59,734 bases of DNA from an uncultured Syntrophales bacterium. GTDB lineage: Bacteria > Desulfobacterota > Syntrophia > Syntrophales > JAAYKM01. The stretch spans positions 1 through 59,734 of the forward strand of contig CAYOYJ010000001.1 of NCBI GenBank assembly GCA_964408155.1. The letters run 5' to 3'. Below the pieces are notes generated by a model. The model did no database searches. It had not been told where the DNA came from and saw only the letters and a program-made list of their open reading frames with translations. A program made the translations under genes and the position numbers. Shown one piece after another: positions 21,931-40,427 of this stretch (position 1 is the first letter of the stretch; each line of letters begins with the position of its first letter).

Positions 21931-21946
21931 CGTTTCCTCACTATAA

Positions 21947-22290: not shown

Positions 22291-22644
22291 ATGCGCAAGA
22301 ACTTTGATGAAAGTGTACTCCGTATGCGGATCACAAAAACGAGAGAAAGCAAGGGCATAAATCAAGCGCAACTTGCCGAAAAAGCGGGTGTTACACCTGC
22401 AGCCATATCACAGATCGAGAAAGGAAATAGAGTCCCTTCTATTCCGGTATTGCATCGCATCGCCAGTGTCTTAGAGGTTTCTCTTGACTATCTTATGGGG
22501 AAGACCGATAAATCAGAAATTGAAGATCTACTCCAATCCGGCGATATAAAGACCTTCTTTCGAGGGTTTGCATCTCTAAGCAGCCAGGATAAGGAGGTCA
22601 TTAAAAAACATATCGAGTTTCTAAAATCTCAAAATCAGGGATAG
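22291..22644 (+). CDS. XRE-family HTH regulator (CapH-like position)
   Basis: INQAQLAEKAGVTPAAISQIEKGNRVPSIPVLHRIASVLEVSLDYLMG is a classical Cro/C1 HTH. Divergent from the CBASS operon and followed 5 bp later by an ImmA-type protease gene. RBS AAGGAGG. Confidence 0.8.
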   Translation: MRKNFDESVLRMRITKTRESKGINQAQLAEKAGVTPAAISQIEKGNRVPSIPVLHRIASVLEVSLDYLMGKTDKSEIEDLLQSGDIKTFFRGFASLSSQDKEVIKKHIEFLKSQNQG

Positions 22645-22649
22645 AATGA

Positions 22650-23516: not shown

Positions 23517-23557
23517 GGATCGATTCTGAATCGCCGATCTCGAAGAAAGGATGCGAG

Positions 23558-24229: not shown

Positions 24230-25018
24230 CAGAGCAGAGCGAGCGAGGCCGCAAACAAAGACACCAATGGTGGTACGCAAGGTTCGCGCCGGCCACCGGA
24301 CGGATGGCCGTCACGCCCCTTGCATTTTTCCCTGTCCCCCCTGCATCCCCCGGAGGGGGAATTCCCGACCACCCGCCCCTCAAGGGCAAGGGACATGCCA
24401 GCCCCAACGGGTCTGTCATGTCCCTTGCTGAGGTACGCATGGGTCGCGCCATCGCCTGACGGCTCTGTCACGCCCCCTGCAATCTGCCTTTTCCCGGTCG
24501 CCGGGTGCGCTTTGCGCGCGATTGTCGATAAGATCGCCACGGGGCGACCGCATCGCCCGTTTTGATCACCCCCTTTCTTTCCCCCTCAAGGGGGACCCGC
24601 CACCCACCCTCTAAAAGGTACCTCCTCTCTCTAACGCTTTCCATTGTAGCGCGGGCTCCCGGCTCCGGCCGTCAAGGGTATACGAGCTCCGGCATGGGCT
24701 TCGGCCCGATGGGCCTTGCAGCCCACCGGAAAAGCGTATTTTTTCCGTCACAGCCCGTGAAGGGGCTTTAGAGGTAAGGCGCTCACGGTCAGTGCCGAAA
24801 AAAATCTTCCTTTTCCTTGCCTGCGCCCTTGACTACCTTCGCGCTCACTCGCTGCTCCGACAACGGCCCGCTCCCGCCGCTCCGCCTTCTTCCTCGTTCC
24901 GCCGCGCTTCGCTTGCGTCGCTCGTCATCCGTCTGCGCTGTGCTCGCTTGGCCTGTCTCCGCCACGCTCGTTCGCCCCGCGCTGGTGTCAAGCGAAAAAT
25001 CGAGAGGAGGTGTTGGTT

Positions 25019-25573
25019 ATGTCTATTTGGTCCGTCATCGGTTCCCGATGCCTGCCCAGCGAATGGGATTCCCGCGTCGGGGATGTGGTCGATCTGCTCT
25101 TGTCCCGCGGGCATCGGATCTGTTCGGGCGGCGCCGTGGGCGCCGATCTCGCGGCGCTTCGCTCCATGGTCCGCCATGGCGCTTCCGCCTGCAAGGGCTC
25201 TTCGGTGTTCCTGCCCGGTGATCTGTCACTGGCCCCGCCGTCTTGCTTGCCCTGGCTCTCCCGGTTCGCCGCTCTGGGCGGTGAGATAATTGAAGGTTCA
25301 GCGTCGGAGCGTTCCTCCCGCCGGGAGGTGGTTGCCGCGCTTCTCATCCGAAATTGCGCCATTGTCCGGGCCTCTGCCGGCGTGGTCGCTTTCGTCTCCG
25401 GTTGTTCTACAGGTTCTTGGTTCACCGTCGAGCAGGCCATCCGGCGTGATCTGGCCGTGGTCGTCTTCCCGGTGGATGGTCCGTCGTGTCTTCATCATTT
25501 TGTCCGCGGTTCCTGGGTTCCCTGCCGTTCCCTGGCCGGGGCTTATGTCTTCACGTATTTCGAGAAAGAATAG
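25019..25573 (+). CDS. Rossmann-fold SLOG/DprA-like protein (DUF2493-like)
   Basis: ICSGGAVGADLAALR and AGVVAFVSG...GSWFTVEQA resemble the GGAxGAD signature of SLOG/DprA-type domains. ATG 25019 lies 8 nt after GAGAGGAGG. Confidence 0.5.
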   Translation: MSIWSVIGSRCLPSEWDSRVGDVVDLLLSRGHRICSGGAVGADLAALRSMVRHGASACKGSSVFLPGDLSLAPPSCLPWLSRFAALGGEIIEGSASERSSRREVVAALLIRNCAIVRASAGVVAFVSGCSTGSWFTVEQAIRRDLAVVVFPVDGPSCLHHFVRGSWVPCRSLAGAYVFTYFEKE

Positions 25574-25583
25574 GAGGTGCATC

Positions 25584-26510
25584 ATGAAAACCACGTCGTC
25601 TGAAATCAATCTGTTCAATCATGAAGATTATGGTGAGGCCTATCTCGGCATGGCGTTCCACGTCCGGGATATGAATCAACTGGATCGGATGATCTTCGAG
25701 GATTGCGCCGTCGCCGATGGGGCGGTGGTCGCCCCGCATTTGAATGTCAAGTCCCACTGTCCCGTTCACCTCCGGCCGGAGATTCTCCGGAAGCGAATCG
25801 GTTGCACATTCCCCCAGGCGGTCGTTCTGGCCGATGCCTGGTCGATCATCGAGGCCACGCCGAAGATGGTCGATGCCTTCATCGGCTGGGTCAAGGCCAA
25901 GGGAATCGAAGCGGGCGTGGCCTATTTCGAACACATCGCCATGAATCTGGCGGAGGTGGAGGTCTCCTGGGATCACGATGTCGGTGAACCGCTTCAAGAT
26001 GATGCTGATGATGATGCCGATGATGCCCTGGATCTTTCCGGGTATCCCGATGAGGCTTATCGGGAAGAGATCCCCGATCTCTATGCCTACCATGTCATTG
26101 GATATGATGAACTTGCGGAGGCGATGGATCTTACCTGGGAGGAAAGGCAGCCGCGCTCTTACAAGGGCTTACTGCGCAAGGTCCGCTGCATTGCCGATCT
26201 GGATGCGCTCCGTGATCTCGGGAAGAGGGTTTACGCCCTCGATCTGGCCCGTGATCAGGCCGGGGTGTTCTGGTATGAATATCGGAAAACGGAGCGGCGG
26301 ATCATGGCGGAAATCGGGAAATCTCTGAGTATCTCCGCCCGAAGGCTCCTGCATCAGGTCCGCAATGCCAACGGCAATCTGGCCGCCCTGGGTGCGCGGC
26401 TCTTCAAGATCCAACGCGGCGATATCAAGATGGCCGATCCGCCCCGGAAGCATGAATGGATCGTCATCTGGGAGGCCTATCATGATCAGCAGGCAGCTAT
26501 CCGGCCTTGA
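25584..26510 (+). CDS. hypothetical protein with acidic linker (308 aa)
   Basis: ATG 25584 is preceded by AGGAGG. Central DDADDDADDALD run. The ORF-track start at 25290 overlaps the upstream gene and is R/S/P-rich, so it is probably not real. Confidence 0.55.
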   Translation: MKTTSSEINLFNHEDYGEAYLGMAFHVRDMNQLDRMIFEDCAVADGAVVAPHLNVKSHCPVHLRPEILRKRIGCTFPQAVVLADAWSIIEATPKMVDAFIGWVKAKGIEAGVAYFEHIAMNLAEVEVSWDHDVGEPLQDDADDDADDALDLSGYPDEAYREEIPDLYAYHVIGYDELAEAMDLTWEERQPRSYKGLLRKVRCIADLDALRDLGKRVYALDLARDQAGVFWYEYRKTERRIMAEIGKSLSISARRLLHQVRNANGNLAALGARLFKIQRGDIKMADPPRKHEWIVIWEAYHDQQAAIRP

Positions 26511-27946
26511 AACCATCCTCTGGGAGATGTGCTTCCGGAGGATCTGCCCCGGGCTTCCTTCCGGTTTGCTGGCATGATCCGGGAGAAGGTCCGGGGTTTT
26601 TCATTTGCCGTGCGCCATAATGCCAAGTTGACAGCAAAGGTCGCGCCGGCCCCAAGGTCCGTCACACCCTTTGCAATTATCATCTCCCGCCCGCCCGACC
26701 CCATTTCCGGCTGGCGGGGATAGCCTGCGAAGACAATCTCGCCAGCGGCCCGCTTGTGCCCCTCGAACTACCCGGCGAAGAGATGCCGGGTTGTCTCGGG
26801 GCGCGTACGCTTGATTATTACCGCTGCACAAAGAACCAGGTCAACACCCGCAGTACTTTCTGCTTTTCCCGCTCTTCTCGTCGCTATGAGCACGCTGAGC
26901 ATAGAACCCCGCCCACCCGGCCCCGTTTCCGGCTGTCATGCCGCCTGCACCGCTTCGCACAAGACATGACCGGCTGCGCAGCCATGTCCTGTGACTCGCA
27001 GCAGGCGTCCCGCCAGCCTTTCCCCCGCCCGACCCGGCGGCTGCGTCCGCCTGCGGGGCAGCGCTTCGCGCCGCCGCCGCAAGCGATCCTCGCCTGCTCC
27101 CGTCCGCCCCAGGGGGCTCCCTTCAGCCTCCGGGCCATCGGCGGACACGCGCTGCGCCGCGTGACCGCCTCGGCCCTCCGGCTTTGTACGTTGCAGGCGC
27201 CCCGTACCCGGCGCGACCTCGCTTCGCTTGGACGCGCCCGGAACGGGTCTGGTGAGAATCACGCCTTCCTGCCTCCGGGACGCGCCGGACGACCGCTGCG
27301 CGGCGACCGGCCCGTCCCTCCGGCAAGAGGTACTTCCCCTTTTCCCGGTCCCGGCAGACCTCACTGCGTTCGGACTGCCGGTCCTCGGGCGTTGCGGCCG
27401 GCTCCGCGACCGCAAACCCGCGTTCGCTCCGCCCGCCTGCTCATTGGTGCGCCCGACAGCCGCCTGACTCCTCCTTCGTCGGAGACAGGCGGCCCCGGGC
27501 GTCCTTTTTCCCTCGTCGGGGCGACACGTGCGTGACGCCCCGCCTCGGCGGTCGCCGTGACTCGCCCTCCGCGACGCTCCGGACGAGACACGTCTCCCTT
27601 TTCGCGCCCTCGCCCTCGAGACCGCTGACGCGGACTCCAGGGCGCCGGACGGCCTCTCCCTCCGGTCGCGACCGTCCGGTCGGGCGCTTCCCCCTATCCT
27701 CCATTCTGCGTGCCGGATGCTTCTTTCATCTTCGGGACGCGATCCCTCACAGAAAATTTCATCAGGGCTGTCTCTCAAGTGAAATACCATCAAGGAGGTG
27801 TCCCATGAATCCAGTCAATATCCACCAGACCCTGGCCAGTCTCCGCTTTCTCCACGACTTCGAGCGGGCCTTCCGGATTATCACCCGGCAGGGTGCGCAG
27901 AGAGATCAGATTGAAGCTGTAAAGCGGGTGAAAGGAGGTGAAAACG

Positions 27947-28342
27947 ATGAAGCTCACGCAGGTCAACAGTCAGAGGCTGAGGGAACTGAAACCAACCCTC
28001 CGTCTCCCCATGAACAGGATCGTCAACGACATCCTGGAAAAGTACTTTAACCATCAACTCAAGGAGGTAGCGGCCATGAAAGTCACGGAAGTCGAAGTCA
28101 TGGTTTCTAAAAAGAAAAGTGTCAATTTCAACTCCTGCTGCGTATCCTACACGGCCCGGGCGACGCTGGACGAAAACGATCCGGGTCATCTGGAGGCGCT
28201 ATCCGCCCTGAAGGATCAGCTCGTCGTCAGGGTCCAGGACGCCCTGAACGGAAAACGGAACGGCAACGGCCAAGGTCAGCTCGGTCCCGGAGATCAGACT
28301 GAGCAGGAAGGGGCCAACACACAGGTGGATGGCCATGAATAA
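27947..28342 (+). CDS. hypothetical protein (131 aa)
   Basis: ATG 27947 lies 6 nt after AAAGGAGGTG. A second internal SD-plus-ATG (AAGGAGGTAGCGGCC-ATG, ATG at 28076) exists. The ORF overlaps an alternative ORF at 27805-28050. Confidence 0.45.
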   Translation: MKLTQVNSQRLRELKPTLRLPMNRIVNDILEKYFNHQLKEVAAMKVTEVEVMVSKKKSVNFNSCCVSYTARATLDENDPGHLEALSALKDQLVVRVQDALNGKRNGNGQGQLGPGDQTEQEGANTQVDGHE

Positions 28343-28384: not shown

Positions 28385-28777
28385 ATGATCAACACAGTCA
28401 CCATCGTCGGCAATCTGGGGCAGGATCCGGAAATCCGGTACACCGCGAGCGGCGTCCCCGTCGCCAGCTTCACCGTCGCGGTCAACGAAGTTTACAAGGG
28501 GAAGGACGGCCAGAAGGTCAAGAAGGTCCACTGGTTTCGGGTCTCGGCCTTCCAGCGCCTGGCGGAGGTCATCGGCGAATACTGCGCCAAGGGTTCCAAG
28601 GTCGGCGTCCGTGGTCAGTTGCAGCAGCGAACCTGGCAGGACAGCGAGGGTTTGAACCACAACCTCGTGGAGATCCGGGCGCGGGAGCTTGAACTCCTGA
28701 GCGGCAAAAACGGCAATCCCGCCACAACGGATGAGGACGTCCCCGCCGCTGCCGAGGACGATGAGATTCCCTTCTGA
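28385..28777 (+). CDS. ssb: single-stranded DNA-binding protein
   Basis: VTIVGNLGQDPEIRYTASGVPVASFTVAVNE (OB fold), WFRVSAF, and an acidic C-terminal tip AEDDEIPF. Confidence 0.9.
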   Translation: MINTVTIVGNLGQDPEIRYTASGVPVASFTVAVNEVYKGKDGQKVKKVHWFRVSAFQRLAEVIGEYCAKGSKVGVRGQLQQRTWQDSEGLNHNLVEIRARELELLSGKNGNPATTDEDVPAAAEDDEIPF

Positions 28778-28800: not shown

Positions 28801-28838
28801 AAGGCATCCCGGTCAATTCCGGCGATGCCTTTTTTTAT
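28801..28838 (+). terminator. rho-independent terminator after ssb
   Basis: GGCATC-N15-GATGCC stem followed by TTTTTTT, about 25 bp downstream of the ssb stop. Confidence 0.6.
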
Positions 28839-29064
28839 TTCGGGTTATGCCATATTCATCCTTTGTAAAATCAAGCAAATAGTGGTATTTATCAACGCAA
28901 CCGCTGCCGCCTTGTATCGCTATGAAATCGTGGAGAAAGAATCCGGCATGATCGATAAATAATACGACTCCCCTTTGTCGTTTGGGCCTTGAGTAGGTGA
29001 TCCGCCGCCGTTAAGATCGGCCGGTACGATCACCGGAAAGGACAGACCAGGACTGATTAACGCC

Positions 29065-31902
29065 ATGCGCATCGACCTCTTGGAAGCCTTCGGGCTGGAC
29101 CCGAACGTCATCGCCATCCTGAAAGAGAAATACGGCGCAGAGCTCCTCCCCATCCAGGAGCGGGCTTTCAAGGAATATCAGATCCTCAACGGCGGCAACT
29201 TCCTCCTCTCCGCCGTCACCTCCTCCGGCAAGACCCTCGTCGGCGAGATCCTCGCCCTCCACTACGGCAGCAAGGGCAAGCGCGTCTTCTACCTCGTCCC
29301 CACCAAGGCCCTGGCGGAAGAAAAGTTCGAGCAGTTCCACGAGGACTACGAAAGGGCCGGCATCCAGACCGTCATCTCCACCCATGATCGCCGCGAATAC
29401 GACGAGCGCATCGAGGGCCGCCGGTTCCACATTGCCATCATCGTCTATGAGAAGCTCCATTCCCTTCTCGTCGGCAACCCCAAGCTCATCAATGACATCG
29501 GCCTCGTCCTGGTGGATGAGCTGCAATACCTGACCGATGAGGAGCGGGGACCCGTTCTGGAGGTCCTCCTCACGCGGATCCTTCTGAACCCGAAGCAGCC
29601 CCAGCTCGTGGGACTCTCCGCCGTCCTGGGCAAAAGCGAGGCCTTGGCCCAATGGCTCCGGGCCAAAATGATCCGGGAGGACAAGCGCCCCGTGGAGCTT
29701 CGCCAGGGCGTCTTTTTCGACGGCAGGTTCCGCTACCGAGAGTTCAACAGCGGGCTCGAAGGCGAAGAGGAGTGGTTCGCTCTCAAGTCCGAAAGGGAAG
29801 CAGGGCAGTACGTGGAGACGGCCAAGTTCCTTGTGGAAGAAAAGGGCGAACAGACCATTATCTTCCTTCCCGACAAGCCCACGACGGAAGCCCTGGCCCA
29901 CCACCTCTCCCATGCCTTGAATCTTCCGCCCGCCGCCGGCGCCATCGCCGAGATGAACGCTTTGGAAGAGAGCGTCTCCAAGGACATGCTCATTACCTTT
30001 CTGAGCAGCGGCGTCGCCGTCCACAACGCCGATCTCTCCTGGGAGGAGCGGGACATCGTCGAGCGCTACACCCGCAAGGGGGAGATCCGCGTCCTCTGCA
30101 CGACCACCACCCTCGCCGTCGGCCTCAATCTCCCCATGAAGAATGCCATCGTCGCGCCGCTGCGCTGGAAGTATTTCCGGGATACGCGAAGCCTCTCCAA
30201 GGAACGCATCCTCGTTTCCGACTACGAGAACATGGGCGGTCGGGTGGCCCGTTACGGCTTCGTCTCCGACTTCGGCCGGGCGCTCTTCGTCACCGCCTCC
30301 TACGTGGATCACAAGTTCTACACCGACCATTACGTCAAAGGCCCCATCGAGGAGATGACCCCCGCGCTGAACCGCAGGGAGATGGACCGGCACATCCTGA
30401 ACCTCGTCGCCTCGGAGATCTGCCGCGACGCCGGGGAGATCAAGACCTTCCTGAAGAGCACCTTCACGGGCCGGACCCTCTGGAACACCGAGATGACCGA
30501 TGCCGACTACGACAAGGTCATCGAGGAGACCATTGCCCTTTCCGTCAAATGGGGCCTCATCGAGAAGACCGCCAAGGACCGGCTCATCCCCACGCCCCTG
30601 GGAAAGAACACCGCCGCCAAGGGGATCGCCCTGGAGACCGCCGTCTTCTTCCTCGAATTCCTCAACAATGCCGATCCCCGCAATGTCTCCGACTTTGAAA
30701 TCCTTATGCTCCTGGCCATGTCTCATGACGCCATTCCCGTCTATATCCCCCTCAAGCGGAACGAGCGGGGACAGGGCGGCTATCTCTATGAACTGAAGCA
30801 GGCGATCCACGACAGCATGGAGGAGACCAAGCCCGTCTTTCAGTCCGTCTGGAAGATCTCGGGCATGCTCTCCCAGGAGAAGGAGCGGGCCGTAAAGAAG
30901 GCCCTGATGATGAACCGGTGGATCTCGCCGGCGGAGACGAAGGAGATCGAGAACAGCTACGAGGTTTTCAGCGGCGCCATCAAGCGCGTGGGGGAGGACT
31001 TCAGTTGGCTGGCCGAGACCCTGGCCTCCCTGGCCAGGGAAATCCGCTGGGACCCGCGGGCCATCGCCAGGATCGAGCGACTTTCTCAGCGGCTGATCTA
31101 TGGCGTCACGGAAAAGGGACTCGCCCTCTCGAAGATCCGCCTGCGGGGCCTGGGCCGGACCTACATCAACACCCTGCTCGCCGAAGGCTACGATACCCCC
31201 GAGGCCGCCGCCGAACTGCCACTGACGGAGCTGGAAAGGCTCCTTCCGAAGCACCTGGCCGAGCGGCTCTACCGCCATTTCCACAAGGACTATCAGAAAC
31301 AGGAAGAAGCGACGGATCAGAAAGCGACAACAGGGATCTGCGAGACATCCGAACAAACCAACACGGATAAAGATCAAACCAGGACGGACTCAGAAGCCGC
31401 GCCGCTGCCAATCGCGCCCCCGGCTGGTGACATCTCCTTTCCCCGTACCCTTGCCGACATCCTCCAGGATAAAATACTTCTTTCCGTCCTGCGCACCCGC
31501 CTTGCCGACGCCAAAGACCTGCGGGAATGGATTGCCAATCCGCCGGTCATCTTCATAGACGAAGGGCAGCAGCTCTTTTTCTATCGAGGCTGTCCGATCA
31601 AGCTTCAACCGGCCAGCTTCCAGTACCTGTTGATCCTGGCGGGAAAACCGAAGCAGATCATAGCCCGTGACGAGATCTACCGCCGCCTCTGGCCCGGTCC
31701 CATGAAGTACGACGGGTCCAACAAACCTTACGAGCGCCAGATCTCCGACCACAAGCGCCGCTGCATCGCCCAGATCAGGAAGGGCGTCGCAGGGAAAGTC
31801 GCCGTCGATCCGGGGGAACTGGAAACACTGATCTTCACCAGGCCAAAGGTGGGGTATATGCTGAATCTGACTCAAGGGAACGTGCTGATACTCTCCCAGT
31901 AG
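29065..31902 (+). CDS. Ski2/Hel308-like SF2 helicase fused to a C-terminal OmpR/PhoB-type winged-helix domain
   Basis: LLPIQERAF (Q motif), SAVTSSGKT (I), LVLVDELQ (II, DExQ/H), TTTLAVGLNLP (V/VI region). The C-terminal ~110 aa, IKLQPASFQYLLILAGKPKQIIARDEIYRRLW...ISDHKRRCIAQIRK...IFTRPKVGYMLNL, follow the trans_reg_C pattern. Confidence 0.8.
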   Translation: MRIDLLEAFGLDPNVIAILKEKYGAELLPIQERAFKEYQILNGGNFLLSAVTSSGKTLVGEILALHYGSKGKRVFYLVPTKALAEEKFEQFHEDYERAGIQTVISTHDRREYDERIEGRRFHIAIIVYEKLHSLLVGNPKLINDIGLVLVDELQYLTDEERGPVLEVLLTRILLNPKQPQLVGLSAVLGKSEALAQWLRAKMIREDKRPVELRQGVFFDGRFRYREFNSGLEGEEEWFALKSEREAGQYVETAKFLVEEKGEQTIIFLPDKPTTEALAHHLSHALNLPPAAGAIAEMNALEESVSKDMLITFLSSGVAVHNADLSWEERDIVERYTRKGEIRVLCTTTTLAVGLNLPMKNAIVAPLRWKYFRDTRSLSKERILVSDYENMGGRVARYGFVSDFGRALFVTASYVDHKFYTDHYVKGPIEEMTPALNRREMDRHILNLVASEICRDAGEIKTFLKSTFTGRTLWNTEMTDADYDKVIEETIALSVKWGLIEKTAKDRLIPTPLGKNTAAKGIALETAVFFLEFLNNADPRNVSDFEILMLLAMSHDAIPVYIPLKRNERGQGGYLYELKQAIHDSMEETKPVFQSVWKISGMLSQEKERAVKKALMMNRWISPAETKEIENSYEVFSGAIKRVGEDFSWLAETLASLAREIRWDPRAIARIERLSQRLIYGVTEKGLALSKIRLRGLGRTYINTLLAEGYDTPEAAAELPLTELERLLPKHLAERLYRHFHKDYQKQEEATDQKATTGICETSEQTNTDKDQTRTDSEAAPLPIAPPAGDISFPRTLADILQDKILLSVLRTRLADAKDLREWIANPPVIFIDEGQQLFFYRGCPIKLQPASFQYLLILAGKPKQIIARDEIYRRLWPGPMKYDGSNKPYERQISDHKRRCIAQIRKGVAGKVAVDPGELETLIFTRPKVGYMLNLTQGNVLILSQ

Positions 31903-31953
31903 CAATGAAACGTCTGAAATGAGACTCAAAAGTTGGTAGGCAAAGGAGTGATA

Positions 31954-33417
31954 ATGAACCTGTATTTTAGTGATGTCTTCCAAATCGACGAGTCAATTTT
32001 GGAAGACTATGGAGCATTCAATATCTCCTTGGTTACGGACCTACCGTTGTTCATAGACCCATTCCTTCTGTTCAACAGTGAAAATGCTGATTATCAGAGA
32101 CTTCATGCACATATCATTTCTTACCTGCGCTTTCTTAAAGGTAAGTCTGAACGCGGCAGTGTATCGGAAGCATTATTGAAATCATGGTATTGTTTTTCCG
32201 AAGTGAGGCAGAATTGGCTCGGCTTTTGTAAAAGTGGGAATTCCGGACGGGGCCTGGGTAGTGATTTCGCCCGTTCATTAAACAGGAATTTGGTCCTCGT
32301 CTTCAGTGACTTCGGAGAAGAACAGGTCACACAGGGCAGTCATCTTGAGAAACTATGTCTTATCAAAGGCGGCGTCGGGCGTGACATGATCAGTGATTTC
32401 ACAACGAATGTTATTAAACAGTACCTTCTGGAGTACACCGAGGCATTTGCTAAAGAGCATATCCAGACGGAGTTTTTACGTAATGTTGCAGTAGACAGAG
32501 CATTATTCAGTTATGATCTTGAACGCTGGATGCCAAAAACGTATTTTTTACCCTTTTATCAAGGAGACTATGTTCTTCTGACACCGAAGGATATATTGAC
32601 GAAAGATGAAACATGGATAAATCACTCCGACATGGTATCCAGATTTGAGGACATACCTGATGCCATCGAGAATTCTTCACTGAGAGCTCAGATAAACAAC
32701 TACTTTGAATCCATGATTCCTCGGGATAGAGATCCAAATAAAGAGGATTATGCACGCGCCATCGAAGCTACCTTGGAGAAATATCCGCAGATTATCGACT
32801 ATTACATAAGGCAAAAAGAAGATACTGGTGAAGAAGCTGTGGCGCTCAGCGCCACCAAGGTTCTTGAGTCACAAAAACTTTATATTAAGCAGTTTGCGGA
32901 ACTTATCGCTCTTCTCAACCAGCAAACGCCTTTCTATAGTATTTCCGGCAAAACAAAAGAAGAAACGAGACAGAAGATTGAGTTCTTTAAAGACGTCGTT
33001 GAAAACAAGGGTGGATATCGGATCTTTTATGTGGACGAAAAACCAGTACGGAAGGAAACAGACGTTCATATACTCTTTCGGCTGACTTGGCACGGTACTC
33101 CATCGGATGTCAGCAGAGAGGTTAACGACGGTCGAGGCCCCGCAGATTTCAAGGTGTCCAGAGGCTCCTCAGATAAGACCATGGTTGAGTTCAAGCTTGC
33201 CAGCAACACACAACTAAGAAGAAACTTAGAAAAGCAACTGGAAATATACCAGAAGGCGAGCGATGCCACCGCCGGTTTCAAAGTGATCATCTATTTTACC
33301 GAAGAGGAATTAGATCGCGTAAAACGTGTTTTACGGGAACTTGAAATGGAGAAAGATCCACACATATACCTTGTGGATGCACGGCAGGACAATAAGCCCT
33401 CAGCTTCGAAAGCTTAA
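31954..33417 (+). CDS. hypothetical protein with C-terminal PD-(D/E)xK nuclease-like motif (487 aa)
   Basis: ATG 31954 lies after AAAGGAG, 52 bp after the helicase stop. C-terminus: GPADFKV...TMVEFKLAS (D...ExK). The N-terminal ~380 aa are unrecognised. Lower GC than the helicase gene. Confidence 0.55.
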   Translation: MNLYFSDVFQIDESILEDYGAFNISLVTDLPLFIDPFLLFNSENADYQRLHAHIISYLRFLKGKSERGSVSEALLKSWYCFSEVRQNWLGFCKSGNSGRGLGSDFARSLNRNLVLVFSDFGEEQVTQGSHLEKLCLIKGGVGRDMISDFTTNVIKQYLLEYTEAFAKEHIQTEFLRNVAVDRALFSYDLERWMPKTYFLPFYQGDYVLLTPKDILTKDETWINHSDMVSRFEDIPDAIENSSLRAQINNYFESMIPRDRDPNKEDYARAIEATLEKYPQIIDYYIRQKEDTGEEAVALSATKVLESQKLYIKQFAELIALLNQQTPFYSISGKTKEETRQKIEFFKDVVENKGGYRIFYVDEKPVRKETDVHILFRLTWHGTPSDVSREVNDGRGPADFKVSRGSSDKTMVEFKLASNTQLRRNLEKQLEIYQKASDATAGFKVIIYFTEEELDRVKRVLRELEMEKDPHIYLVDARQDNKPSASKA

Positions 33418-33560
33418 GACGGCAAACCATAAGATCTGACCCGCAATCGTCATATGAGCGAAGCTGTGGGAAAGAGAGCGTGTCGATTCTCCTTTAATCG
33501 AATGAAATGAAAGTTTATTGGTTGTGTAGCAACGCCCAAATTTCATGCCGCTTCATTTTG

Positions 33561-34343
33561 TTACATCACGCCAAGTATCCATCCCTCAACTTTGGCAAGC
33601 GTACGTTCTGCGGGGGTCAGCGACGGTGACAAGGATGTTGATATGCTGCCATCGAGATCAACTTGTCGCATCCATCTGGCCACTGAATAAGCGTCATGCT
33701 GGTCCTGATTGCGGTCTTCGCGGACAAAACCCCGGCTCCATAAGGATGGGTAAACCTCCACGATTACCGAACGACCTGGTGGGAGTTCCCAGCCATCGAA
33801 AGGCCAGAAGTGGATTTTATCAGTCAACTTCTGGCGAAGGTATCTCAACCAAGGTATTCCGGAATGCGTCGATTTGGCTACTTCACCCGGCACGTCAAAG
33901 TGAAAGACCGATTTGGCAGAACCAGCCCTTTCCTCTGTCAAGCGACGCCAACGGGTATTGCCCGTTCGGTCGGCGCCATTCCCTCTAAGACCATCCCGAA
34001 TGAAATCAACATAGACATTATCACCATCTGTCGGCCAGTGGCGCTGGAAATCATCGAGAAAGGTGGGCCAGTCAGGAAGCAGATGGTGAACCTCGAAATA
34101 ACGTAGGGGGAAAGAAAAGCCGTGATCAATACCGACAATGGTGGAATGATCTTCTTGTAGATGATCGACCAACCACTCGGCAATACCCCTTCTTGTCCAA
34201 TATTTTCGGGGGCTCGGCGGCGGTTGTACCTCTGTCGGCAGAGTGTCCAAATCAGCCGTATAAGCCCGCAGCCCTTTAAGGCTCGATATCGGCGTTTGGG
34301 CTCCCGAATAATCGATGCCGATATAACGGTGAAAAAATGACAT
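33561..34343 (-). CDS. hypothetical protein, possible RNase H-like fold (260 aa)
   Basis: YIGIDYSGA near the N-terminus, then VGIDHGFSFP, VIVEVYPSLW and QDQHDAYSVARW recall DUF429/RuvC-like nuclease layouts. Start M23 (34343) lies 13 nt after the upstream stop. This is the last gene of the BREX-like operon. Confidence 0.4.
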   Translation of the reverse strand: MSFFHRYIGIDYSGAQTPISSLKGLRAYTADLDTLPTEVQPPPSPRKYWTRRGIAEWLVDHLQEDHSTIVGIDHGFSFPLRYFEVHHLLPDWPTFLDDFQRHWPTDGDNVYVDFIRDGLRGNGADRTGNTRWRRLTEERAGSAKSVFHFDVPGEVAKSTHSGIPWLRYLRQKLTDKIHFWPFDGWELPPGRSVIVEVYPSLWSRGFVREDRNQDQHDAYSVARWMRQVDLDGSISTSLSPSLTPAERTLAKVEGWILGVM

Positions 34344-34356
34344 GCCTACGTCCTGA

Positions 34357-35583
34357 TCATTTATCGAATAAGCTTGGTTGAGCTTCCCTGGCAGCCTCAT
34401 ACTCCTCATAGAGTTTGAGGATAGGCATTCTCTTCTTCACCGTCTTGATAAATTCTGGATTATTCAGCGTTTCGTAAGTGACACCTTTGAAGATTAGCGA
34501 TACTTCTATTTTCTTGAGGTTCCTTTCGGCAGAGCCGAAATGGTCTGTAAGTTCACAATCCAATACCTGTCGAATATCAGCTGCGGACGGTTTTGAAGGT
34601 AAGAATTTTTTCCACCGCTCCGGGGTCTGTGCGATAACAGCCGGAGCAAGCGCATTGACTAGCGCCAAGCGATTATTGTCGATGGCCTTCTGAAGTTTCG
34701 CTTCGAGTTCCTTTTGAAAATCCTCGATGTGTTTTTTAAGTTCCTTTACCGCAGCTTCAAACTCCTCCTTTTTGCTCCTAAGAATGACATTCCCAAAGTT
34801 GGGCAGATTGACTAGAAAATCATCGGCAATCCTTTCCTTGTGTGCAGTAATCTCCTCCCCTGATATCTTGGTATCTTCATCATCAATCAACTGAAATGAG
34901 CTGTGCAGCAGCTTTTTGGTTTTGTCATCCTTTGCCAAGCCAAGCAGGTCGCTCGGTATATTGACCTTCCTTTTGCCGATTTGATGACCTCTTAACTCGA
35001 ATTCTACGAACTCAATTTGTGAATTGAAAACGCGCACCTTTCTGGCAATATCGAACTTCATTGGAGGATTGCGAATCAGATCGTTGGAAGTCTCCATTAT
35101 CTTTGTAGGACTTATGGGATTGGTTCCTACGGTGGCCCCACCTCCGGCCTTTTCAAGACCCATATCTTTGGCGATGTCAGTGGGCACCAAATTTAGTTTA
35201 ACGGCATTCGGGCGAACCGGAGTATCTGAACCACCTTCGATAAGCAATGGCGTTGGCGCATAGAATAGCGTTACATCATCTGCGATCAGCAGTGCAATCC
35301 TTACTCCGGGCTGTTCATGTATTGCACTTCCGAGCTTTCTGGCTTTTTCATTTAATTTTTTGAGGGCATCGATCGTTCCAAAGCCCATCCGACATACTTC
35401 AGGATCAACATCGAGTATGATGTTGATAGCTTCTGGTGGTAATTCGTCCCATTTCCTACAGACAGCCTCGGCTACTGGATCAGACATCCCGGGCGTCATA
35501 TAAACAAGACGTCTCTTGACGCTCTGGATAATTTGGCAAAGATAAGCATCGTCAACGGTAGTGATTGCAGTTGGTTCAGACAT
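34357..35583 (-). CDS. hypothetical protein (408 aa)
   Basis: Intact ORF 21 nt downstream of the 129-aa gene. The N-terminal ~120 aa have a PLD-repeat-like layout without HxK. The C-terminal half is helical and Lys/Glu-rich. Confidence 0.5.
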   Translation of the reverse strand: MSEPTAITTVDDAYLCQIIQSVKRRLVYMTPGMSDPVAEAVCRKWDELPPEAINIILDVDPEVCRMGFGTIDALKKLNEKARKLGSAIHEQPGVRIALLIADDVTLFYAPTPLLIEGGSDTPVRPNAVKLNLVPTDIAKDMGLEKAGGGATVGTNPISPTKIMETSNDLIRNPPMKFDIARKVRVFNSQIEFVEFELRGHQIGKRKVNIPSDLLGLAKDDKTKKLLHSSFQLIDDEDTKISGEEITAHKERIADDFLVNLPNFGNVILRSKKEEFEAAVKELKKHIEDFQKELEAKLQKAIDNNRLALVNALAPAVIAQTPERWKKFLPSKPSAADIRQVLDCELTDHFGSAERNLKKIEVSLIFKGVTYETLNNPEFIKTVKKRMPILKLYEEYEAAREAQPSLFDK

Positions 35584-35604
35584 CGGAGCCCTCCAATTTT
35601 TTTA

Positions 35605-35994
35605 CTAAATCCGGATGCACTTCTGGTCGCCATTCATGAAATATCTTACGCAGCCGGCAGCCTCTAAGATAGCTGCGACGTAGTTACCAATCGCACGGGG
35701 AAAATGGACAGCAGCGCGGGCAACTTCATCTACGCTGTCCTCCGTTGGGATAACCGCATGTTCAGCGGCAATTCGCAACAGACCTGACGGATTATTTCGA
35801 AAATAGGTGTCGACGGCATCAAACATTGCTCGCGGAAGACGATTTGGTGTCTGCGATTTTCCGATTTCGATATCTATGTGCGTTGGGGCGGCACCTGTGA
35901 CGATAAAAGGCCTTTGTCTGCTGGCGGGAATCCCTCTGCCGGGCGTCAGGAGTTGCTGACCGGGGCTTAAATTTGCCATGACCTTATTCCACAT
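35605..35994 (-). CDS. hypothetical protein (129 aa)
   Basis: ATG 35994 lies 6 nt after AGGAGG and 17 nt after the BrxL-like stop. The longer ORF-track start (36051) would overlap the BrxL-like gene. Confidence 0.5.
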   Translation of the reverse strand: MWNKVMANLSPGQQLLTPGRGIPASRQRPFIVTGAAPTHIDIEIGKSQTPNRLPRAMFDAVDTYFRNNPSGLLRIAAEHAVIPTEDSVDEVARAAVHFPRAIGNYVAAILEAAGCVRYFMNGDQKCIRI

Positions 35995-36011
35995 AAGCGC
36001 CTCCTTCTGTG

Positions 36012-38060
36012 TCAATCGGCCTTCAGATAGATAATTTCCGATTCCCGGCATTTTCTTTTCCGTTGGTCTATTTCACTGAGCTCATACTTTGATGCCGGTT
36101 TCTGAAAAATATCCAGCCCGCGACCCGGAATGATTCGCCATCCGTTATCCAAGGCGATGCTTCGATCATGAATGGTCGGATTAAACGCGTAACTGAATTC
36201 AATCCCATGTTTTGCAAGGCTATCCTTTATCTCTTCCAGCTTTTTTGCATTCGTCTGTTCCTGGAAAGAATTTTCGGCAGCCGTTGTTAGGATCAGTTTG
36301 ACCGGCCCGCCCGAGGTGTCAATGACGTTGGTAAAGATCAGAAAATTCCTGATTTGATATTCCATGCGAATATAAGGATCCGTAACATGGATAACGCGCG
36401 CTCCTTTCAGATATGATCCGAAAAGTCGTTGATAGCTTTGTCCCGTTTCACCATCTTGAATACGCACCGTTTTTTCGACAGGTGTTTCAACCCCATCTTT
36501 TTGAGGTTCCGTTATTTCAGTTTGGTGGGGAGCATCAGTCGCTGGCGACAATATGTCGTTCGGTATTGATACGCCTTTTTCCGGCTTTGAATTATCCGCA
36601 TAGGATGGTTTCCTATGATGACTTTGAAAATCATCGGGGAACTTCGAGAGTATTGTAAGCGGGATATATTCCCGATCCAATTTGCATAATTCATCTCTGA
36701 CCCGCTGCCGTAGCTCAATGGCGGGGTTTACGCAATACTGGAAAAAATCTGTGTCAGCCGGTTTCTTATCGGGAAAGAGTATTTTAAGCAGCCCCGTTGC
36801 TCCCGCCTCAATCGCTTTGCTGTCCCGCATATCGTCACAATTGGAAAGCTCCATGTTTGTTTTCACGTAATCGCGATAGCTGATGTCACCCCGTAGCGTA
36901 TGGAGAATTTCTCCGAAGATGTCGCCTTTCAGTCCCAGTGAGACGGATGGGGTTTTTTTGCTGATACGCGGTAGATCCCAGCCGGGCAGCAGTCCCGAGA
37001 ATCGGTCGATAAAAGCCGTCTCTCTTAAAAAATTGGGGAATATTCTAAACAGACCGATGTCCTCGTTTAAGGGTCTTCTGTTTTGGTCAAGGTCGATATT
37101 AGCCAATATGACGATCCCAGCTTCTGCGGTAATCGAACCGGCGCTGCCGCGTCCGAACCGGCCAGCTTCCAGGTAAGATTTCAAGAGGGCCGTCAATTCT
37201 CCTGAACTGTCCGCTTTAACTTTTTGTGCTTCGTCGATGACCACACAGTCATAGCGGGTAATCAAACCGGGCGTCTTTCGGGAATCGTTAAAGAAGAGAA
37301 CCGGTGCCGTGATCGCGCCGGAACGAACAGCCACATAGCGAGACATGTTTTCAAACACAAAGGATTTGCCTGTTCCTTTTGGGGCCAACTCCACCAGATT
37401 GTACCTTGGTTCGACTAAGGAAATAAGCCGAGATATCAGCAGAATCTTTTGCCGTTCGGAATATAGAAGATGGTTAAACCCCATCGAAGAAATGATCAGA
37501 TCGATCCATTCGGATGTCGTAAATGCACTCCGACACTCTGTGAAGTACGCAATATCCACGTTTGCCAACTGGAAAGGCCGAAATTCCCGTGCCCATATCG
37601 CGCCTTTTCCTTTCGTCTTCCCGTCGGACGGCGGCACATAAAAGAGAGATCCCAACCCCCATAAACCGCTGCTCAGCAGCATGTCATTTTCTTGGACAAT
37701 TTGTGGCGTGATGAAAGCGGAATCTTCATCCAAGAAGGGTATGCTTAAATAACGGTCTCCCTTCGCCAAATTTACATGTACTGAGAAATTATCGAGTATT
37801 TTAACTTCCTGCTGCTCATAGAGGTGGTTTTTGATGGTTTCCTTTTCGCTTTTATCCGGGACGTAGGTATGAACGAACTTAGCGATCTTTTGGCGAACCG
37901 CTTCGGTTAAATCGCTTTCACCGGCAATATAGTGCGAGATGATCCATTCCCTAACGTAGGTGGGTATGGCGCGGCTGCCAAAGCCCGCTTGATGGACAAA
38001 GGATTTATTGATGACAATTTCACCGAAGTTCTCCAGTGCTTTTTTCTCAAACGTGTCCAT
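36012..38060 (-). CDS. BrxL-like AAA+ ATPase with C-terminal MIT_C/PLD-like domain (no evident Lon protease domain)
   Basis: N-terminus FGEIVINKSFV...RAIPTYVREWIISHYI and the AAA+ core LVELAPKGTGKSFVF, CVVIDEAQ and ITAEAGIVILANI are BrxL-like. The C-terminus VTDPYIR...HGIEFSYAFNPTIHDRSIALDNGWRIIPGRGLDIFQKP resembles MITD1 MIT_C. Confidence 0.7.
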   Translation of the reverse strand: MDTFEKKALENFGEIVINKSFVHQAGFGSRAIPTYVREWIISHYIAGESDLTEAVRQKIAKFVHTYVPDKSEKETIKNHLYEQQEVKILDNFSVHVNLAKGDRYLSIPFLDEDSAFITPQIVQENDMLLSSGLWGLGSLFYVPPSDGKTKGKGAIWAREFRPFQLANVDIAYFTECRSAFTTSEWIDLIISSMGFNHLLYSERQKILLISRLISLVEPRYNLVELAPKGTGKSFVFENMSRYVAVRSGAITAPVLFFNDSRKTPGLITRYDCVVIDEAQKVKADSSGELTALLKSYLEAGRFGRGSAGSITAEAGIVILANIDLDQNRRPLNEDIGLFRIFPNFLRETAFIDRFSGLLPGWDLPRISKKTPSVSLGLKGDIFGEILHTLRGDISYRDYVKTNMELSNCDDMRDSKAIEAGATGLLKILFPDKKPADTDFFQYCVNPAIELRQRVRDELCKLDREYIPLTILSKFPDDFQSHHRKPSYADNSKPEKGVSIPNDILSPATDAPHQTEITEPQKDGVETPVEKTVRIQDGETGQSYQRLFGSYLKGARVIHVTDPYIRMEYQIRNFLIFTNVIDTSGGPVKLILTTAAENSFQEQTNAKKLEEIKDSLAKHGIEFSYAFNPTIHDRSIALDNGWRIIPGRGLDIFQKPASKYELSEIDQRKRKCRESEIIYLKAD

Positions 38061-38069
38061 AATGCTCTC

Positions 38070-40427
38070 CTACTCCAGATCATCGAAGGCGCTTTTGCCC
38101 TTTGTTTCGACCATGGCGCGCATTGTGATCGGCATCGTGACACTTTGCTCGTGCCGCTCATCATGACAGGTGAATCGAATGTGGAGGGTCAGGTTGTTTC
38201 TTTCATCAGCATTAGTCGTCTGTTTGAATTGGGCGGTCATTTCCACCAGGCCCTTATTTTTTCCGTTTAACAAGTCGATCGTTATCTGATCCGTTTCGAT
38301 ATTGGAATTGATGACCGATATACAGATATTTTCGATAGCAAACTCATTGGGATTGCCGATCTCCAGAGCAATCGTTTCCTTGCGATAGCGGAATTCTTTA
38401 GTTGCCAAGAGTAGTGTAAGATCCCGGAGAGGCGCTTTGGCCGCTTCAAAGATCAGATAGGGCACAACGACCTCTTCTGGAGATAACCCGCCGTGGGTAT
38501 AGGAATTGTCATCCGTCTTTGAAAAACGATTACCCCGTCTGGCACTCAGGTAATGGCTGGCATTTCCAAATTCTGTAGCATCCAAAAAGAAACAGTCCTC
38601 TTTCCAATTTTCCGGAAGACTGGAGAATCTCTCGTTTGAAACAGCGATATATCGAGGCGAGCGGATGGTGAATTCTGTGCTTTCAAATCCAGAAGGATCG
38701 AGGTCGTTGGCAATTTCCGCGGGAATTGTCGTGGAGCCGTGATCTGTGAGCACGTGAATCGCAATCTTTTTTTTCAGATCATGCTTATCAATGAATTCGG
38801 CAATCGTTTCTACGAAACCTTCGAGGAGGCTGCTGATGTACTTCAGATGCGGCATCCCGATCTGATCAGACGACATGTGTAGGGCTTTGTCTATAGCCAG
38901 GTAATTGACAACATAGGTATGCCCGGTTATTTTTCCGATATCAGACAGCTTGCCTGGATCGCTGATATACTGAAAAGTCGCGTCGTTGAAATAGGGGACC
39001 CAGCCCTTTTCTATGATGTTCTTGTATGTCTTGTTGTCTATGTCATTGTATGTAGGTGTGCCGGCGAGCAAACATTTTTTGGAAATTTCTGTTTCTGACG
39101 GCAACATCGATAGGTAAGGTTCTACTTTGGAGAGAAAGAAACCATGCATCTGGAAAAGGTCCTTGATAATCGGGACGAGCCCCCACCATAGATTGTCAAT
39201 GACGAGAACCAGATTGATGCTTTCATCCGATTTTAACCGGTCAGCGTTGTTCGGAAGGATGTTAAAAACCATCCTTTTGGAATTTGCGTGTATATCCTGC
39301 CATTTGCTATAGAGCCATTGAGAAAACTCGTCGGCAAGTTTATAGATTCCCTCATTCATCTTGTTGTTCGAAGCGCACCAGGTCTGATAGGGCAGATAGA
39401 ATTGCGTTGCCCATGTTATCATTTGGTCGAGATCCCAGGTTTTATCAGGCTGAGACGGAAGGGGTGGTTGGACAAGGCCTTTCAGCGCTTTAAGACGCCT
39501 CCCCACACGATCCTGAAGCGCTTCAAATTTCACATCCACGGCATTGATGATGTCTGCGGTAATCCAGTCAGGCTGACTCTTGAGAATCTTTTCCACCGTT
39601 TCAAATTCAGTGACCAGATAACCGCTCATATTGGAAATGAGGGCTTCCATTTCCGCCACATTCGCAGGTACCTGGTATGCATTCAGGATGTAAGTTATTT
39701 GGGTAACAATATCTTTTATGCCGGATTCGTCGATGCTCACTTTCGACAAATCAGGCTTCAGTGATTCAAGAATAGAAAAGTCATCTCCCATCAGTTTATG
39801 CCCCAGGGCTTTATAGGACCTGAGGACTTTGTATTTCATCAACTGATCTTTGAGGGCATCTACATCCGTAGAGAACAAGTCTATCAGCCGTCTGAGATCG
39901 GAACTTTTGGCCTTTGTTTTCCATTCGGCTAATCGCTTTGAATAGATTCCAGAAATAAGCGGATTCTTTGTGTTGGTATCCCACTTTGTGGAATCATAAG
40001 CCGCAAGAAGGACGCCCAATTTCGCAAATGGGAAGGTTTTCCCGGTAAAGAGAGGATGGTAAAAGTGATCCAGAATAACGTTGTCAAAGTGCGCCCCCTT
40101 GGGTGGGGATATATCCAACTCCAGCAAGCCGGCTGCGACGATCTCCTCATTGGATATCTCTTTTGGTATGGATATGCCCCAGATCTCTTCCAAACGACAG
40201 CGCGCGTCGATGCATTCGATTTTGACGCTTTCCTTGGGATAGCGACCGGACATGTGCACAAACCATTGCATAACCGTCGCATCGCGAACGTAGAGGGTTA
40301 TATCGCGGCCCTCAGCAAGAGCTTTCAGGATTTTAACGTAAGCTGATACGTATCCCGCTATGGATGAAACCACGTCATCCTCAGCGGTTGACACCAGTCC
40401 ATTCAAATCCTCAATCAGCCTAATCAT
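38070..40427 (-). CDS. pglZ: PglZ-domain alkaline-phosphatase-fold protein
   Basis: LVLVIDNLWWG, HVLTDHGST and YTHGGLSPEEVVVPYLIF are PglZ hallmarks. 785 aa. The start overlaps the brxC stop by 8 nt. Confidence 0.85.
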   Translation of the reverse strand: MIRLIEDLNGLVSTAEDDVVSSIAGYVSAYVKILKALAEGRDITLYVRDATVMQWFVHMSGRYPKESVKIECIDARCRLEEIWGISIPKEISNEEIVAAGLLELDISPPKGAHFDNVILDHFYHPLFTGKTFPFAKLGVLLAAYDSTKWDTNTKNPLISGIYSKRLAEWKTKAKSSDLRRLIDLFSTDVDALKDQLMKYKVLRSYKALGHKLMGDDFSILESLKPDLSKVSIDESGIKDIVTQITYILNAYQVPANVAEMEALISNMSGYLVTEFETVEKILKSQPDWITADIINAVDVKFEALQDRVGRRLKALKGLVQPPLPSQPDKTWDLDQMITWATQFYLPYQTWCASNNKMNEGIYKLADEFSQWLYSKWQDIHANSKRMVFNILPNNADRLKSDESINLVLVIDNLWWGLVPIIKDLFQMHGFFLSKVEPYLSMLPSETEISKKCLLAGTPTYNDIDNKTYKNIIEKGWVPYFNDATFQYISDPGKLSDIGKITGHTYVVNYLAIDKALHMSSDQIGMPHLKYISSLLEGFVETIAEFIDKHDLKKKIAIHVLTDHGSTTIPAEIANDLDPSGFESTEFTIRSPRYIAVSNERFSSLPENWKEDCFFLDATEFGNASHYLSARRGNRFSKTDDNSYTHGGLSPEEVVVPYLIFEAAKAPLRDLTLLLATKEFRYRKETIALEIGNPNEFAIENICISVINSNIETDQITIDLLNGKNKGLVEMTAQFKQTTNADERNNLTLHIRFTCHDERHEQSVTMPITMRAMVETKGKSAFDDLE

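Follow-up and report, generated by a model that had tools for sequence, protein, structure and literature searches.

A helicase gene and its neighbour

We analysed a stretch of 59,734 nucleotides from an uncultured Syntrophales bacterium (GenBank assembly GCA_964408155.1, contig CAYOYJ010000001.1, positions 1 to 59,734 of the forward strand), called here the window, in which the gene of a 945-amino-acid (aa) helicase is followed by that of a 487-aa protein with a predicted nuclease domain at its C-terminus. The original prediction, made from the letters of the sequence, had likened the two genes to a Hachiman defence system and had proposed, as a second possibility, that the helicase is a BrxH-type partner of a neighbouring BREX-like operon. 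The two open reading frames (ORFs) are:

29065-31902, plus strand: helicase ORF, 945 aa, with the motifs VTSSGKT and VDELQ
31954-33417, plus strand: 487-aa ORF, ATG at 31954, a DUF8370/DUF8371 gene

What had been read directly from the sequence was confirmed: both ORFs, the superfamily 2 (SF2) motifs of the helicase, the short gap (51 nt between the helicase stop and the ATG of the 487-aa gene), the ribosome-binding site (RBS) of that gene (AAGGAG, 31943-31948), and the D...ExK motif in its C-terminus, GPADFKV...MVEFKLAS. The stretch GPADFKVSRGSSDKTMVEFKLAS was found in place as well. The BREX-type operon is present and does converge on the two genes. Their difference in composition is real: GC content is 60.6% in the helicase gene (82.9% at third codon positions, GC3) versus 43.2% in the 487-aa gene (GC3 45.7%).

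Independence of the two gene families

The helicase and the 487-aa gene are real neighbours but not a dedicated pair. At 38 independent loci of the 487-aa family (23 in genomes and 15 on viral contigs), no relative of the helicase was found within 8 kb; homologues of the 487-aa protein are not consistently adjacent to such helicases, as partners had been expected to be. On the helicase side, 44 distinct contigs of the close lineage were counted, each extending 1.5 kb or more beyond the helicase, and the 487-aa gene lies 3' of the helicase in 6 of them. The helicase family is small, with 25 clusters at 90% identity, and the 487-aa family comprises more than 6,600 clusters. Among 40 relatives of the window genome, the helicase was not detected in any of the 7 of the same genus and was detected in 3 of the 33 others of the order, two of these having it only in part; none of the 40 yielded the 487-aa protein, save for one weak N-terminal match.

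In our judgement the locus probably brings together two unrelated things: a Hel308/Hjm-type helicase belonging to the backbone of a phage-like element, with a hotspot for cargo genes after its residue N934, and a 487-aa gene which is a self-contained nuclease carried as inserted cargo.

Insertion of the 487-aa gene

The related locus L032 shares the helicase and the BREX-type operon of the window (95% nucleotide identity) but has no 487-aa gene. Two features of the window stand out in this comparison:

31867-33467, plus strand: single-gene cassette of 1.6 kb, an insertion or deletion relative to L032
33468-33497, plus strand: displaced older helicase tail, GKESVSILL and stop, aligning with the helicase 3' ends of L032 (VAKENVSILI and stop) and L027 (VGKENVSILL and stop)

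The cassette is made of its own helicase tail (LTQGNVLILSQ and stop), the 51-nt spacer with its RBS, the 487-aa gene, and about 50 nt of 3' flank. The older type of tail sits directly before a gene called o282 in L032, and in the window 31867-31902 and 33468-33497 form imperfect direct repeats of about 30 nt on either side of the cassette. The cassette went in ahead of the older BREX-type cargo and so displaced the earlier helicase tail in the downstream direction. Between related elements with this cassette, identity is 96-99% for the 487-aa protein, versus 90-92% for the helicases; because of this higher identity and of the GC contrast, we regard the cassette as a recent arrival spreading between related elements. 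The suspicion that the pairing might be recent was therefore borne out, in that the 487-aa gene is a discrete recent insertion.

Over 24-53 kb of the window, no tail remnant other than the 30 nt at 33468-33497 was found. At other loci, too, repeated fragments of the helicase were suspected behind cargo modules, and rejected: the ORFs proved to be RadC-like, with true tail remnants only in L081 and in the window. In L081, a chimeric ORF (1935-2327) joins helicase residues 892-943 to a RadC-like N-terminus; it is a displaced tail that comes after a cargo module. Genes of the RadC-like kind are met repeatedly among the cargo, in L058, L069, L074 and L092.

A cargo hotspot at the end of the helicase gene

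The 487-aa gene is one of many alternatives at this site. In the 44 contigs, the first genes 3' of the helicase fall into at least 16 classes, the majority being defence systems, among which:

'Empty' class (PIN-like toxin gene and small ORFs): 8 contigs
BREX-type sets: about 7 contigs
DUF8370/71 class: 6 contigs
AbiE-like class: 4 contigs
Fic, DEAD, SNF2 and Eco57I-type methylase: 3 contigs
Set with a 1,715-aa DUF87 ATPase: 3 contigs
Uncharacterised three-gene set: 3 contigs
1,750-aa DEAD+MZB protein with SNF2 (DISARM-like): 2 contigs
Unique sets: several contigs

For all cargo classes, DNA homology ends at the same point, 31865/31866, just past N934 of ...TRPKVGYMLN. The last 9-12 residues of the helicase co-vary perfectly with the cargo class (45 loci): the tail is L[TPN]QG[NS][VA]LILSQ with DUF8370/71 cargo, VGKEATLILPPS with the empty form of the hotspot and VAKENVSILI with the o282/BREX-type set, while VRKEDVLITMPH, LKREDIVHI, VNNDTVSILHI and others accompany further classes. 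Since the homology breaks inside the last codons, the helicase gene is the left anchor of the hotspot.

The right side was located with the empty relatives. In these eight (L071, L072, L080, L082-L085 and L131), homology with the window ends at 31865 and resumes at about 50964-51083, and a conserved 245-aa gene stands about 1.6 kb 3' of the helicase; in those contigs that are long enough, it is followed by the genes of a PD-(D/E)XK exonuclease and of Sak4-like, SbcC-like and Rep O-like proteins. The helicase being contiguous with these downstream genes in the empty relatives, we conclude that the window holds about 19.1 kb of cargo inside a single replication/recombination module:

31867 to about 50964, mixed strands: cargo island of about 19.1 kb, with the DUF8370/71 cassette, the BREX-type set and AbiEii/AbiEi
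33561-49231, minus strand: three small genes and the BREX-type operon (annotation)
49265-50874: AbiEii/AbiEi (annotation)

In E. coli, the P2 and P4 hotspots are sites where mobile elements hold defence genes between conserved genes of their backbone. The hotspot described here is like them in being a fixed site, between conserved genes of the element, that receives many alternative defence systems. It is unlike them in that its left border lies within the coding end of the helicase gene, that each cargo encodes its own helicase tail, and that a displaced copy of the tail flanks the inserted cassette. This displaced copy suggests that insertion is repeat-mediated or site-specific. With at least 16 alternative cargos and a left edge in coding sequence, the hotspot offers uncharacterised gene sets worth screening as defence systems.

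A Hel308-type helicase with an additional winged helix

The helicase comprises a Hel308 core (aa 9-718, 29089-31218), a low-complexity linker (about aa 745-830), a winged helix (about aa 831-934, 31555-31866) and the cargo-linked variable tail (aa 935-945, 31867-31899). The core matches the structure of P. furiosus Hjm (PDB 2zj2) over aa 9-718 with an E value of 5.7e-66, and the helicase also aligns full length with the Hel308 structures 2p6r (A. fulgidus) and 2va8, S. solfataricus Hel308 being included. All five domains are covered by the alignment, namely two RecA domains, winged-helix domain 3, ratchet domain 4 and helix-hairpin-helix domain 5. The Hel308-type models of NCBIfam match over aa 11-771 with E 2.8e-99, under their equivalog cut-offs (333 bits versus a cut-off of 887 for PRK02362, 259 bits versus 1200 for helicase_Hel308). 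By these profiles the 945-aa helicase is a divergent Hel308 relative and no equivalog, and the Ski2/Hel308-type assignment made earlier was correct. Pfam recognises DEAD, Helicase_C and Helicase_dom4_arc (E 1.8e-12), with a weak HHH_5 (E 0.19); among PHROGs, phrog_6819, 'Holliday junction branch migration helicase', matches with E 1.2e-69.

The motor motifs are intact as judged from conservation: of 27 full-length relatives, all or nearly all retain GKT, DELQ, SAV and GGRVAR. The full-length relatives L132 and L133 are 56-60% identical to the helicase, and L035, from another genome of the same order, 31%. With archaeal Hel308/Hjm (2zj2, 2p6r) the helicase shares all five domains, aligned end to end. 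It differs from them in being bacterial and carried by a mobile element, in the roughly 200 aa added at its end, which contain the OmpR-type winged helix, and in two motifs: motif II is DELQ instead of DEIH, and motif III SAV instead of SAT. A grouping with the helicases of repair or of mobile elements had been named beforehand as speaking against a defence pair, and it is what we find: the protein is of the Hel308/Hjm type, and its gene is a backbone gene.

An OmpR-type winged helix had also been recognised at the C-terminus. The evidence for it is marginal in the window protein alone, but solid across the family. Pfam Trans_reg_C reaches E 1.1e-3 and 19.4 bits on the window helicase, versus a cut-off of 26.2. 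A profile of the last 176 aa compared with the PDB gave 16 matches, all of them OmpR/PhoB-family DNA-binding domains (best E 1.5e-4). An exhaustive search of 1.84 billion representative proteins returned 111 relatives of the domain; 46 of these were scanned, and 41 match Trans_reg_C at E ≤ 1e-3, the best at 4.6e-42. No Response_reg (receiver) domain was matched in the helicase or in these 46 relatives. Judged at the level of the family, the helicase C-terminus has its DNA-binding fold family in common with the OmpR/PhoB response regulators; unlike them it has no receiver, its partner in the fusion being a helicase or, among relatives of 290 aa, a helix-hairpin-helix remnant. We take LIFTRPKVGYML of the helicase to resemble the wing motif of the OmpR/PhoB family; the motif T-R-x-x-V-G-Y is presumably common to that family and to the helicase C-terminus. 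The fusion, noted earlier as unusual, is real and defines a small family. No paper mentioning Hel308 together with OmpR was found in the literature searched, where a bacterial, mobile-element-borne Hel308-type helicase with an OmpR-type DNA-binding domain is an architecture without description.

Some relatives have no motor. A class of 289-292 aa, present in at least 15 loci (among L096-L119 and L122-L124; e.g. L110:7692-8570), begins with the N-terminal 60 aa, continues with the last helix-hairpin-helix of domain 5, followed by linker and winged helix, and ends in a hydrophobic C-terminal tail; in L117 the motor-less gene directly follows ssb, the gene of the single-strand DNA-binding protein (SSB). 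Deletions of the motor are seen in L092 (7845-8453), where aa 1-53 are joined to 787-944, and in L120 (191-1420), where aa 1-42 are joined to 608-943. In genome G024 (C6:23560-25002, corresponding to L034/L053) there is only the 3' half of the helicase gene, located between host TRAP-transporter genes and a type I restriction-modification (R-M) system with a RhuM gene.

The backbone of the element

On both sides of the hotspot, the helicase gene is accompanied by the same genes in related loci. Upstream, these genes and the region between ssb and the helicase are:

25010-25573, plus strand: DprA-like gene (phrog_768, E 5.6e-6; homologues with Pfam DNA_processg_A)
25446-26510, plus strand: conserved gene of about 307-354 aa (synteny)
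27938-28342, plus strand: 134-aa gene (synteny)
28385-28777, plus strand: ssb, 130 aa (Pfam SSB, E 8.8e-33)
28803-29036, plus strand: ssb-helicase intergenic region, conserved in 8 loci (alignment)
28803-28840, plus strand: terminator-like hairpin with T-run (sequence only)
28863-28891, plus strand: promoter-like TTGTAA-17 nt-TATTTA (sequence only)
28964-28981 and 28996-29036, plus strand: two conserved leader hairpins (sequence only)

The DprA-like, approximately 307-354-aa and 134-aa genes occur in the same order 5' of the helicase in L025, L026, L029-L031, L083 and L084, with 73-98% aa identity, and ssb lies directly 5' of the helicase in nearly all related loci (76-99% identity). The complete upstream order, from the DprA-like gene through the gene of about 307 aa, the 134-aa gene and ssb to the helicase, was retrieved in nine contigs by exact protein look-ups and in 80 metagenome loci; anaerobic digesters and activated sludge are the kinds of sample from which the contigs come. 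The leader between ssb and helicase, about 190 nt long, is conserved even in L029, where other genes part the two. No credible Rfam match was found in 24.0-33.7 kb, which includes this leader. L025 and L028 have an insertion of about 120 nt in the leader 5' of the helicase.

Downstream of the hotspot, the backbone continues with:

51268-51555, plus strand: Zn-ribbon-like small ORF (Pfam/PHROG, synteny)
51639-52376, plus strand: 245-aa gene (synteny)
52752-53804, plus strand: PD-(D/E)XK exonuclease (Pfam/PHROG)
53931-55322, plus strand: Sak4-like AAA_24 protein (Pfam/PHROG)
55417-57330, plus strand: SbcC/SMC-like ATPase (Pfam/PHROG)
57386-58348, plus strand: Rep O-like protein (Pfam/PHROG)
58251-59192, plus strand: DnaC/IstB-like loader (Pfam/PHROG)

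In L071, L083 and L085 these downstream genes are contiguous with the helicase, at 64-92% aa identity. Composition follows the same division: GC3 is 82-83% in ssb and the helicase, 76-79% in the exonuclease, Sak4 and SbcC genes and 60-79% in the downstream backbone overall, and 46-59% in the cargo. We conclude that the helicase is accessory to the host genome, a backbone gene of a sporadically distributed element. The name phage-like refers to the Rep O, DnaC, Sak4 and exonuclease genes of the element.

The 487-aa protein

Two regions can be distinguished in the 487-aa protein:

31954-33033, plus strand: N-terminal domain, aa 1 to about 360, strongly conserved, with no fold match
33034-33417, plus strand: PD-(D/E)xK-type nuclease domain, about aa 361-487, with E368, D398, E412-x-K414 and Q428

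The motifs DLPLFIDPFLLF, QNWLGF, GNxGRGLG, GVGRDxISDFTTN and LLTPKDILTKD emerged from an alignment of the N-terminal domain. A sequence-profile search of the PDB with this domain was empty, and no Foldseek match covered the region. In the C-terminal domain, 29 homologues with 45-78% identity to the window protein show no variation at E368, D398, E412, K414 and Q428. In the AlphaFold model of the protein, which has a confidence (pLDDT) of 80, the C-terminal elements follow the order alpha-beta-beta-beta-alpha-beta-alpha-beta, with a helix at 368-377, strands at 385-387, 399-404 and 407-415, a helix at 421-435 and a strand at 440-447. In the model, the catalytic order E...D...ExK on an alpha-beta-beta-beta-alpha-beta core matches that of PD-(D/E)xK nucleases, as had been called from the sequence. 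The weak top-ranked structural matches in the PDB include the restriction-endonuclease-fold proteins SfsA, Can2, Cdn1, PaqCI and NucS/EndoMS; most named weak matches in BFVD are likewise proteins of this fold. Mrr-type and 'restriction endonuclease' entries are also among the best-ranked weak matches.

DUF8370 and DUF8371 were precomputed for all 120 homologues among the matches listed, one of which is 99% identical to the window protein, and both also lie on the genes in L024, L026 and L029. The family extends over Thermodesulfobacteriota, Planctomycetota, Verrucomicrobiota, Cyanobacteria, Bacteroidota, Proteobacteria, Thermotogae and Saccharibacteria, and is represented on 15 IMG/VR contigs and in phrog_30194. 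It has no conserved neighbour: in an all-against-all BLAST no family occurred in more than 2 of the 23 genome loci, and pooled Pfam and PADLOC scans of 121 neighbours gave nothing recurrent. The neighbours include type I R-M, Mrr, Mokosh-like, STAND and type ISP genes, transposases, and metabolic or housekeeping genes.

The PADLOC model PDC-M36A matches aa 22-232 of the protein with E 1.9e-20, which is the sole clue to its function. PDCs are defence candidates obtained by 'guilt-by-embedding' in known systems (Payne et al., bioRxiv 10.1101/2024.01.29.577857), and most of them remain experimentally unproven (bioRxiv 10.1101/2024.01.29.577857; PMC12988326). The candidate system PDC-M36 consists of the proteins A and B. 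The N-terminal half of the 487-aa protein resembles M36A; its C-terminal half, in contrast, has no M36A match, and PDC-M36B (125 positions) was not found in the genome. The 487-aa protein is therefore a relative of PDC-M36, not a member. No paper mentioning DUF8370/DUF8371 or PDC-M36 was found in the literature searched. The protein is probably a one-protein nuclease defence candidate. A further independent, recently inserted copy of DUF8370/DUF8371 in a defence setting strengthens the standing of the family as a candidate one-protein immune gene.

Interpretation and alternative readings

The sequence comparisons establish the architecture and synteny of the genes, the borders of the hotspot, the insertion and the mutual independence of the two families; the biochemical activities and the defence role that follow are proposals. 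The element carries, in order, DprA-like, SSB and helicase genes, then the hotspot, and then exonuclease, Sak4-like annealase, SbcC-like, RepO and DnaC-like genes. Placed after the terminator-like hairpin behind ssb, the helicase gene may be expressed from its own promoter-like site through a structured leader. We infer that its product would be a 3'-to-5' DNA translocase remodelling stalled forks or branched recombination intermediates of the element, with the SSB, the Sak4-like annealase, the exonuclease and the SbcC-like protein as likely partners. The winged helix, on its flexible linker, could tether the helicase to particular DNA of the element. As for the 487-aa protein, its N-terminal domain might recognise a feature of invading DNA or a cue of infection, upon which the PD-(D/E)xK domain would cut DNA; the protein would work alone. 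Its function would be defence of the type IV-restriction or abortive-infection kind, modes which are suggested by the lack of a cognate methyltransferase travelling with the gene.

Several observations weigh against this interpretation. For the element, whose phage-like type is tentative, there are no integrase, capsid or other structural genes and no conjugation genes within the window, a search of 50,697 phage records returned neither protein (for the helicase, these gave only distant Hjm-type matches of archaeal viruses), and the helicase was not found in IMG/VR. For the domains, the winged-helix region is modelled by AlphaFold at pLDDT 41, too poor for a fold search, and Foldseek with the nuclease domain gave no match at E ≤ 1e-3, the best being 0.15 in the PDB and 0.007 in BFVD. 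For the defence role, most places where the 487-aa family occurs are not clearly defence islands. Finally, a promoter/terminator scan predicted nothing between the helicase and the 487-aa gene, and the same 51-nt spacing is kept in 6 of the 44 contigs, so that co-transcription, and some cooperation, is possible in this lineage.

This last point bears on the Hachiman comparison, under which the helicase would sense or translocate on DNA and thereby license a PD-(D/E)xK partner. The common strand, the close spacing with no terminator predicted, the recurrence of the adjacency in 6 related contigs and the match of PADLOC HamB models to the helicase core (E ~1e-28) would fit it. We nevertheless hold it to be very unlikely: no relative of this helicase lies within 8 kb at the 38 independent loci of the 487-aa family, 38 of the 44 contigs of the helicase's own lineage have no 487-aa neighbour, and the 487-aa protein has no DUF1837 or HamA match at E ≤ 1 in Pfam or PADLOC. 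In addition, the full-length Hel308 match (E 2.8e-99) compares with HamB matches confined to the motor (for PDB 8vx9, E 5e-16 over aa 16-212 only), and the 487-aa gene, with a GC3 of 46% versus 83%, is a discrete insertion. The genuine system, a HamA DUF1837 nuclease with a HamB Ski2-like helicase, likewise places a Ski2-like helicase beside a restriction-endonuclease-fold protein in a defence-rich region; here, in contrast, the partner is without DUF1837, the two genes stand in the opposite order, the helicase has more in common with Hel308 than with HamB, and the adjacency is conserved in neither family. No new Hachiman-like pair exists here, and a false lead is removed. A role of the helicase as BrxH-type accessory of the convergent BREX-type operon fares no better, and we regard it as extremely improbable, although the helicase is within 1.7 kb of the operon end, PADLOC BrxHI models match it (E 1.2e-14), and BREX-type cargo follows it in about 7 of the 44 contigs. 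The BrxHI match is limited to the generic motor (aa 25-282), the helicase gene is convergent with the operon and outside it, and its composition is that of ssb and the recombination genes, unlike that of the BREX-type genes. The same helicase is found beside DISARM-like, Fic, AbiE-like or toxin-antitoxin cargo, or next to nearly empty hotspots.

Two further proposals accept the helicase as a backbone protein and give it, or its end, a function in the hotspot. According to the first, the helicase-winged-helix protein also serves the hotspot, either as regulator or sensor of cargo expression or as binder of its own 3' repeat, aiding the capture of cassettes. Cargo always begins within the last helicase codons, and tail-coding repeats flank the cassette; the motor-less class of 289-292 aa is stable, and the internal deletions of L092, L120 and G024 lose the motor and keep the winged helix. 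In view of these repeats and motor-less forms, the winged-helix end may act by itself in cargo regulation or capture, and transcription from the helicase promoter could extend into plus-strand cargo. However, tail and cargo could also co-vary simply through linkage and homologous exchange, a large part of the cargo lies on the strand opposite to the helicase, and no recombinase lies in or beside the cassette, which makes this added role unlikely. The second proposal, speculative and only slightly less doubtful, is that the helicase tail (about 12 codons) is an attachment site at which defence cassettes of one or several genes are stacked one before the other, each supplying a new tail and displacing the previous one; this would be an integron-like or att-like capture system within a gene of a phage-like element. 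The winged helix, or the motor-less 290-aa relatives, might then bind the site or control the cargo. As regards the 487-aa protein, it might be non-immune, i.e. a selfish or addiction nuclease, or a mobile enzyme of DNA repair or processing. Many of its neighbourhoods hold housekeeping genes or transposases instead of defence genes, identity between homologues from different phyla is 64-78%, a level unusual among immune sensors, which evolve fast, and the family occurs on the 15 viral contigs and in phrog_30194. We give this a small but real chance, since here and in 5 related contigs the gene is located in a hotspot full of defence systems, some homologues adjoin type I R-M genes, and the N-terminal domain has a relative among the defence candidates that embedding has brought up. 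Our preference remains with a backbone helicase and an unrelated cargo nuclease.

Other variable regions

The empty form of the hotspot keeps a 147-aa PIN-like (VapC-type) gene (L083:7460-7903, minus strand; likewise in L071, L072, L080, L082, L084, L085 and L131) and small ORFs, probably a toxin-antitoxin pair. In the window, the three small genes behind BrxL (33561-36051) differ among related elements: 282-aa and 408-aa genes are found in L032, L056 and L024, and a 248-aa gene instead in L031 and L090. The uncharacterised cargos of L064-L066, L077/L078/L088, L067, L070 and L073 are candidate defence systems by position; examples are a pair of 435 and 276 aa beside the 1,715-aa DUF87/HerA-like ATPase, and a trio of 372, 185 and 267 aa.

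A second variable slot lies 5' of the DprA-like gene (window 7104-24229), bounded by a conserved metallophosphoesterase and radical-SAM pair. It contains a transposon-disrupted CBASS operon in the window, and TIR/ThsB-type genes in L031 (1456-3120).

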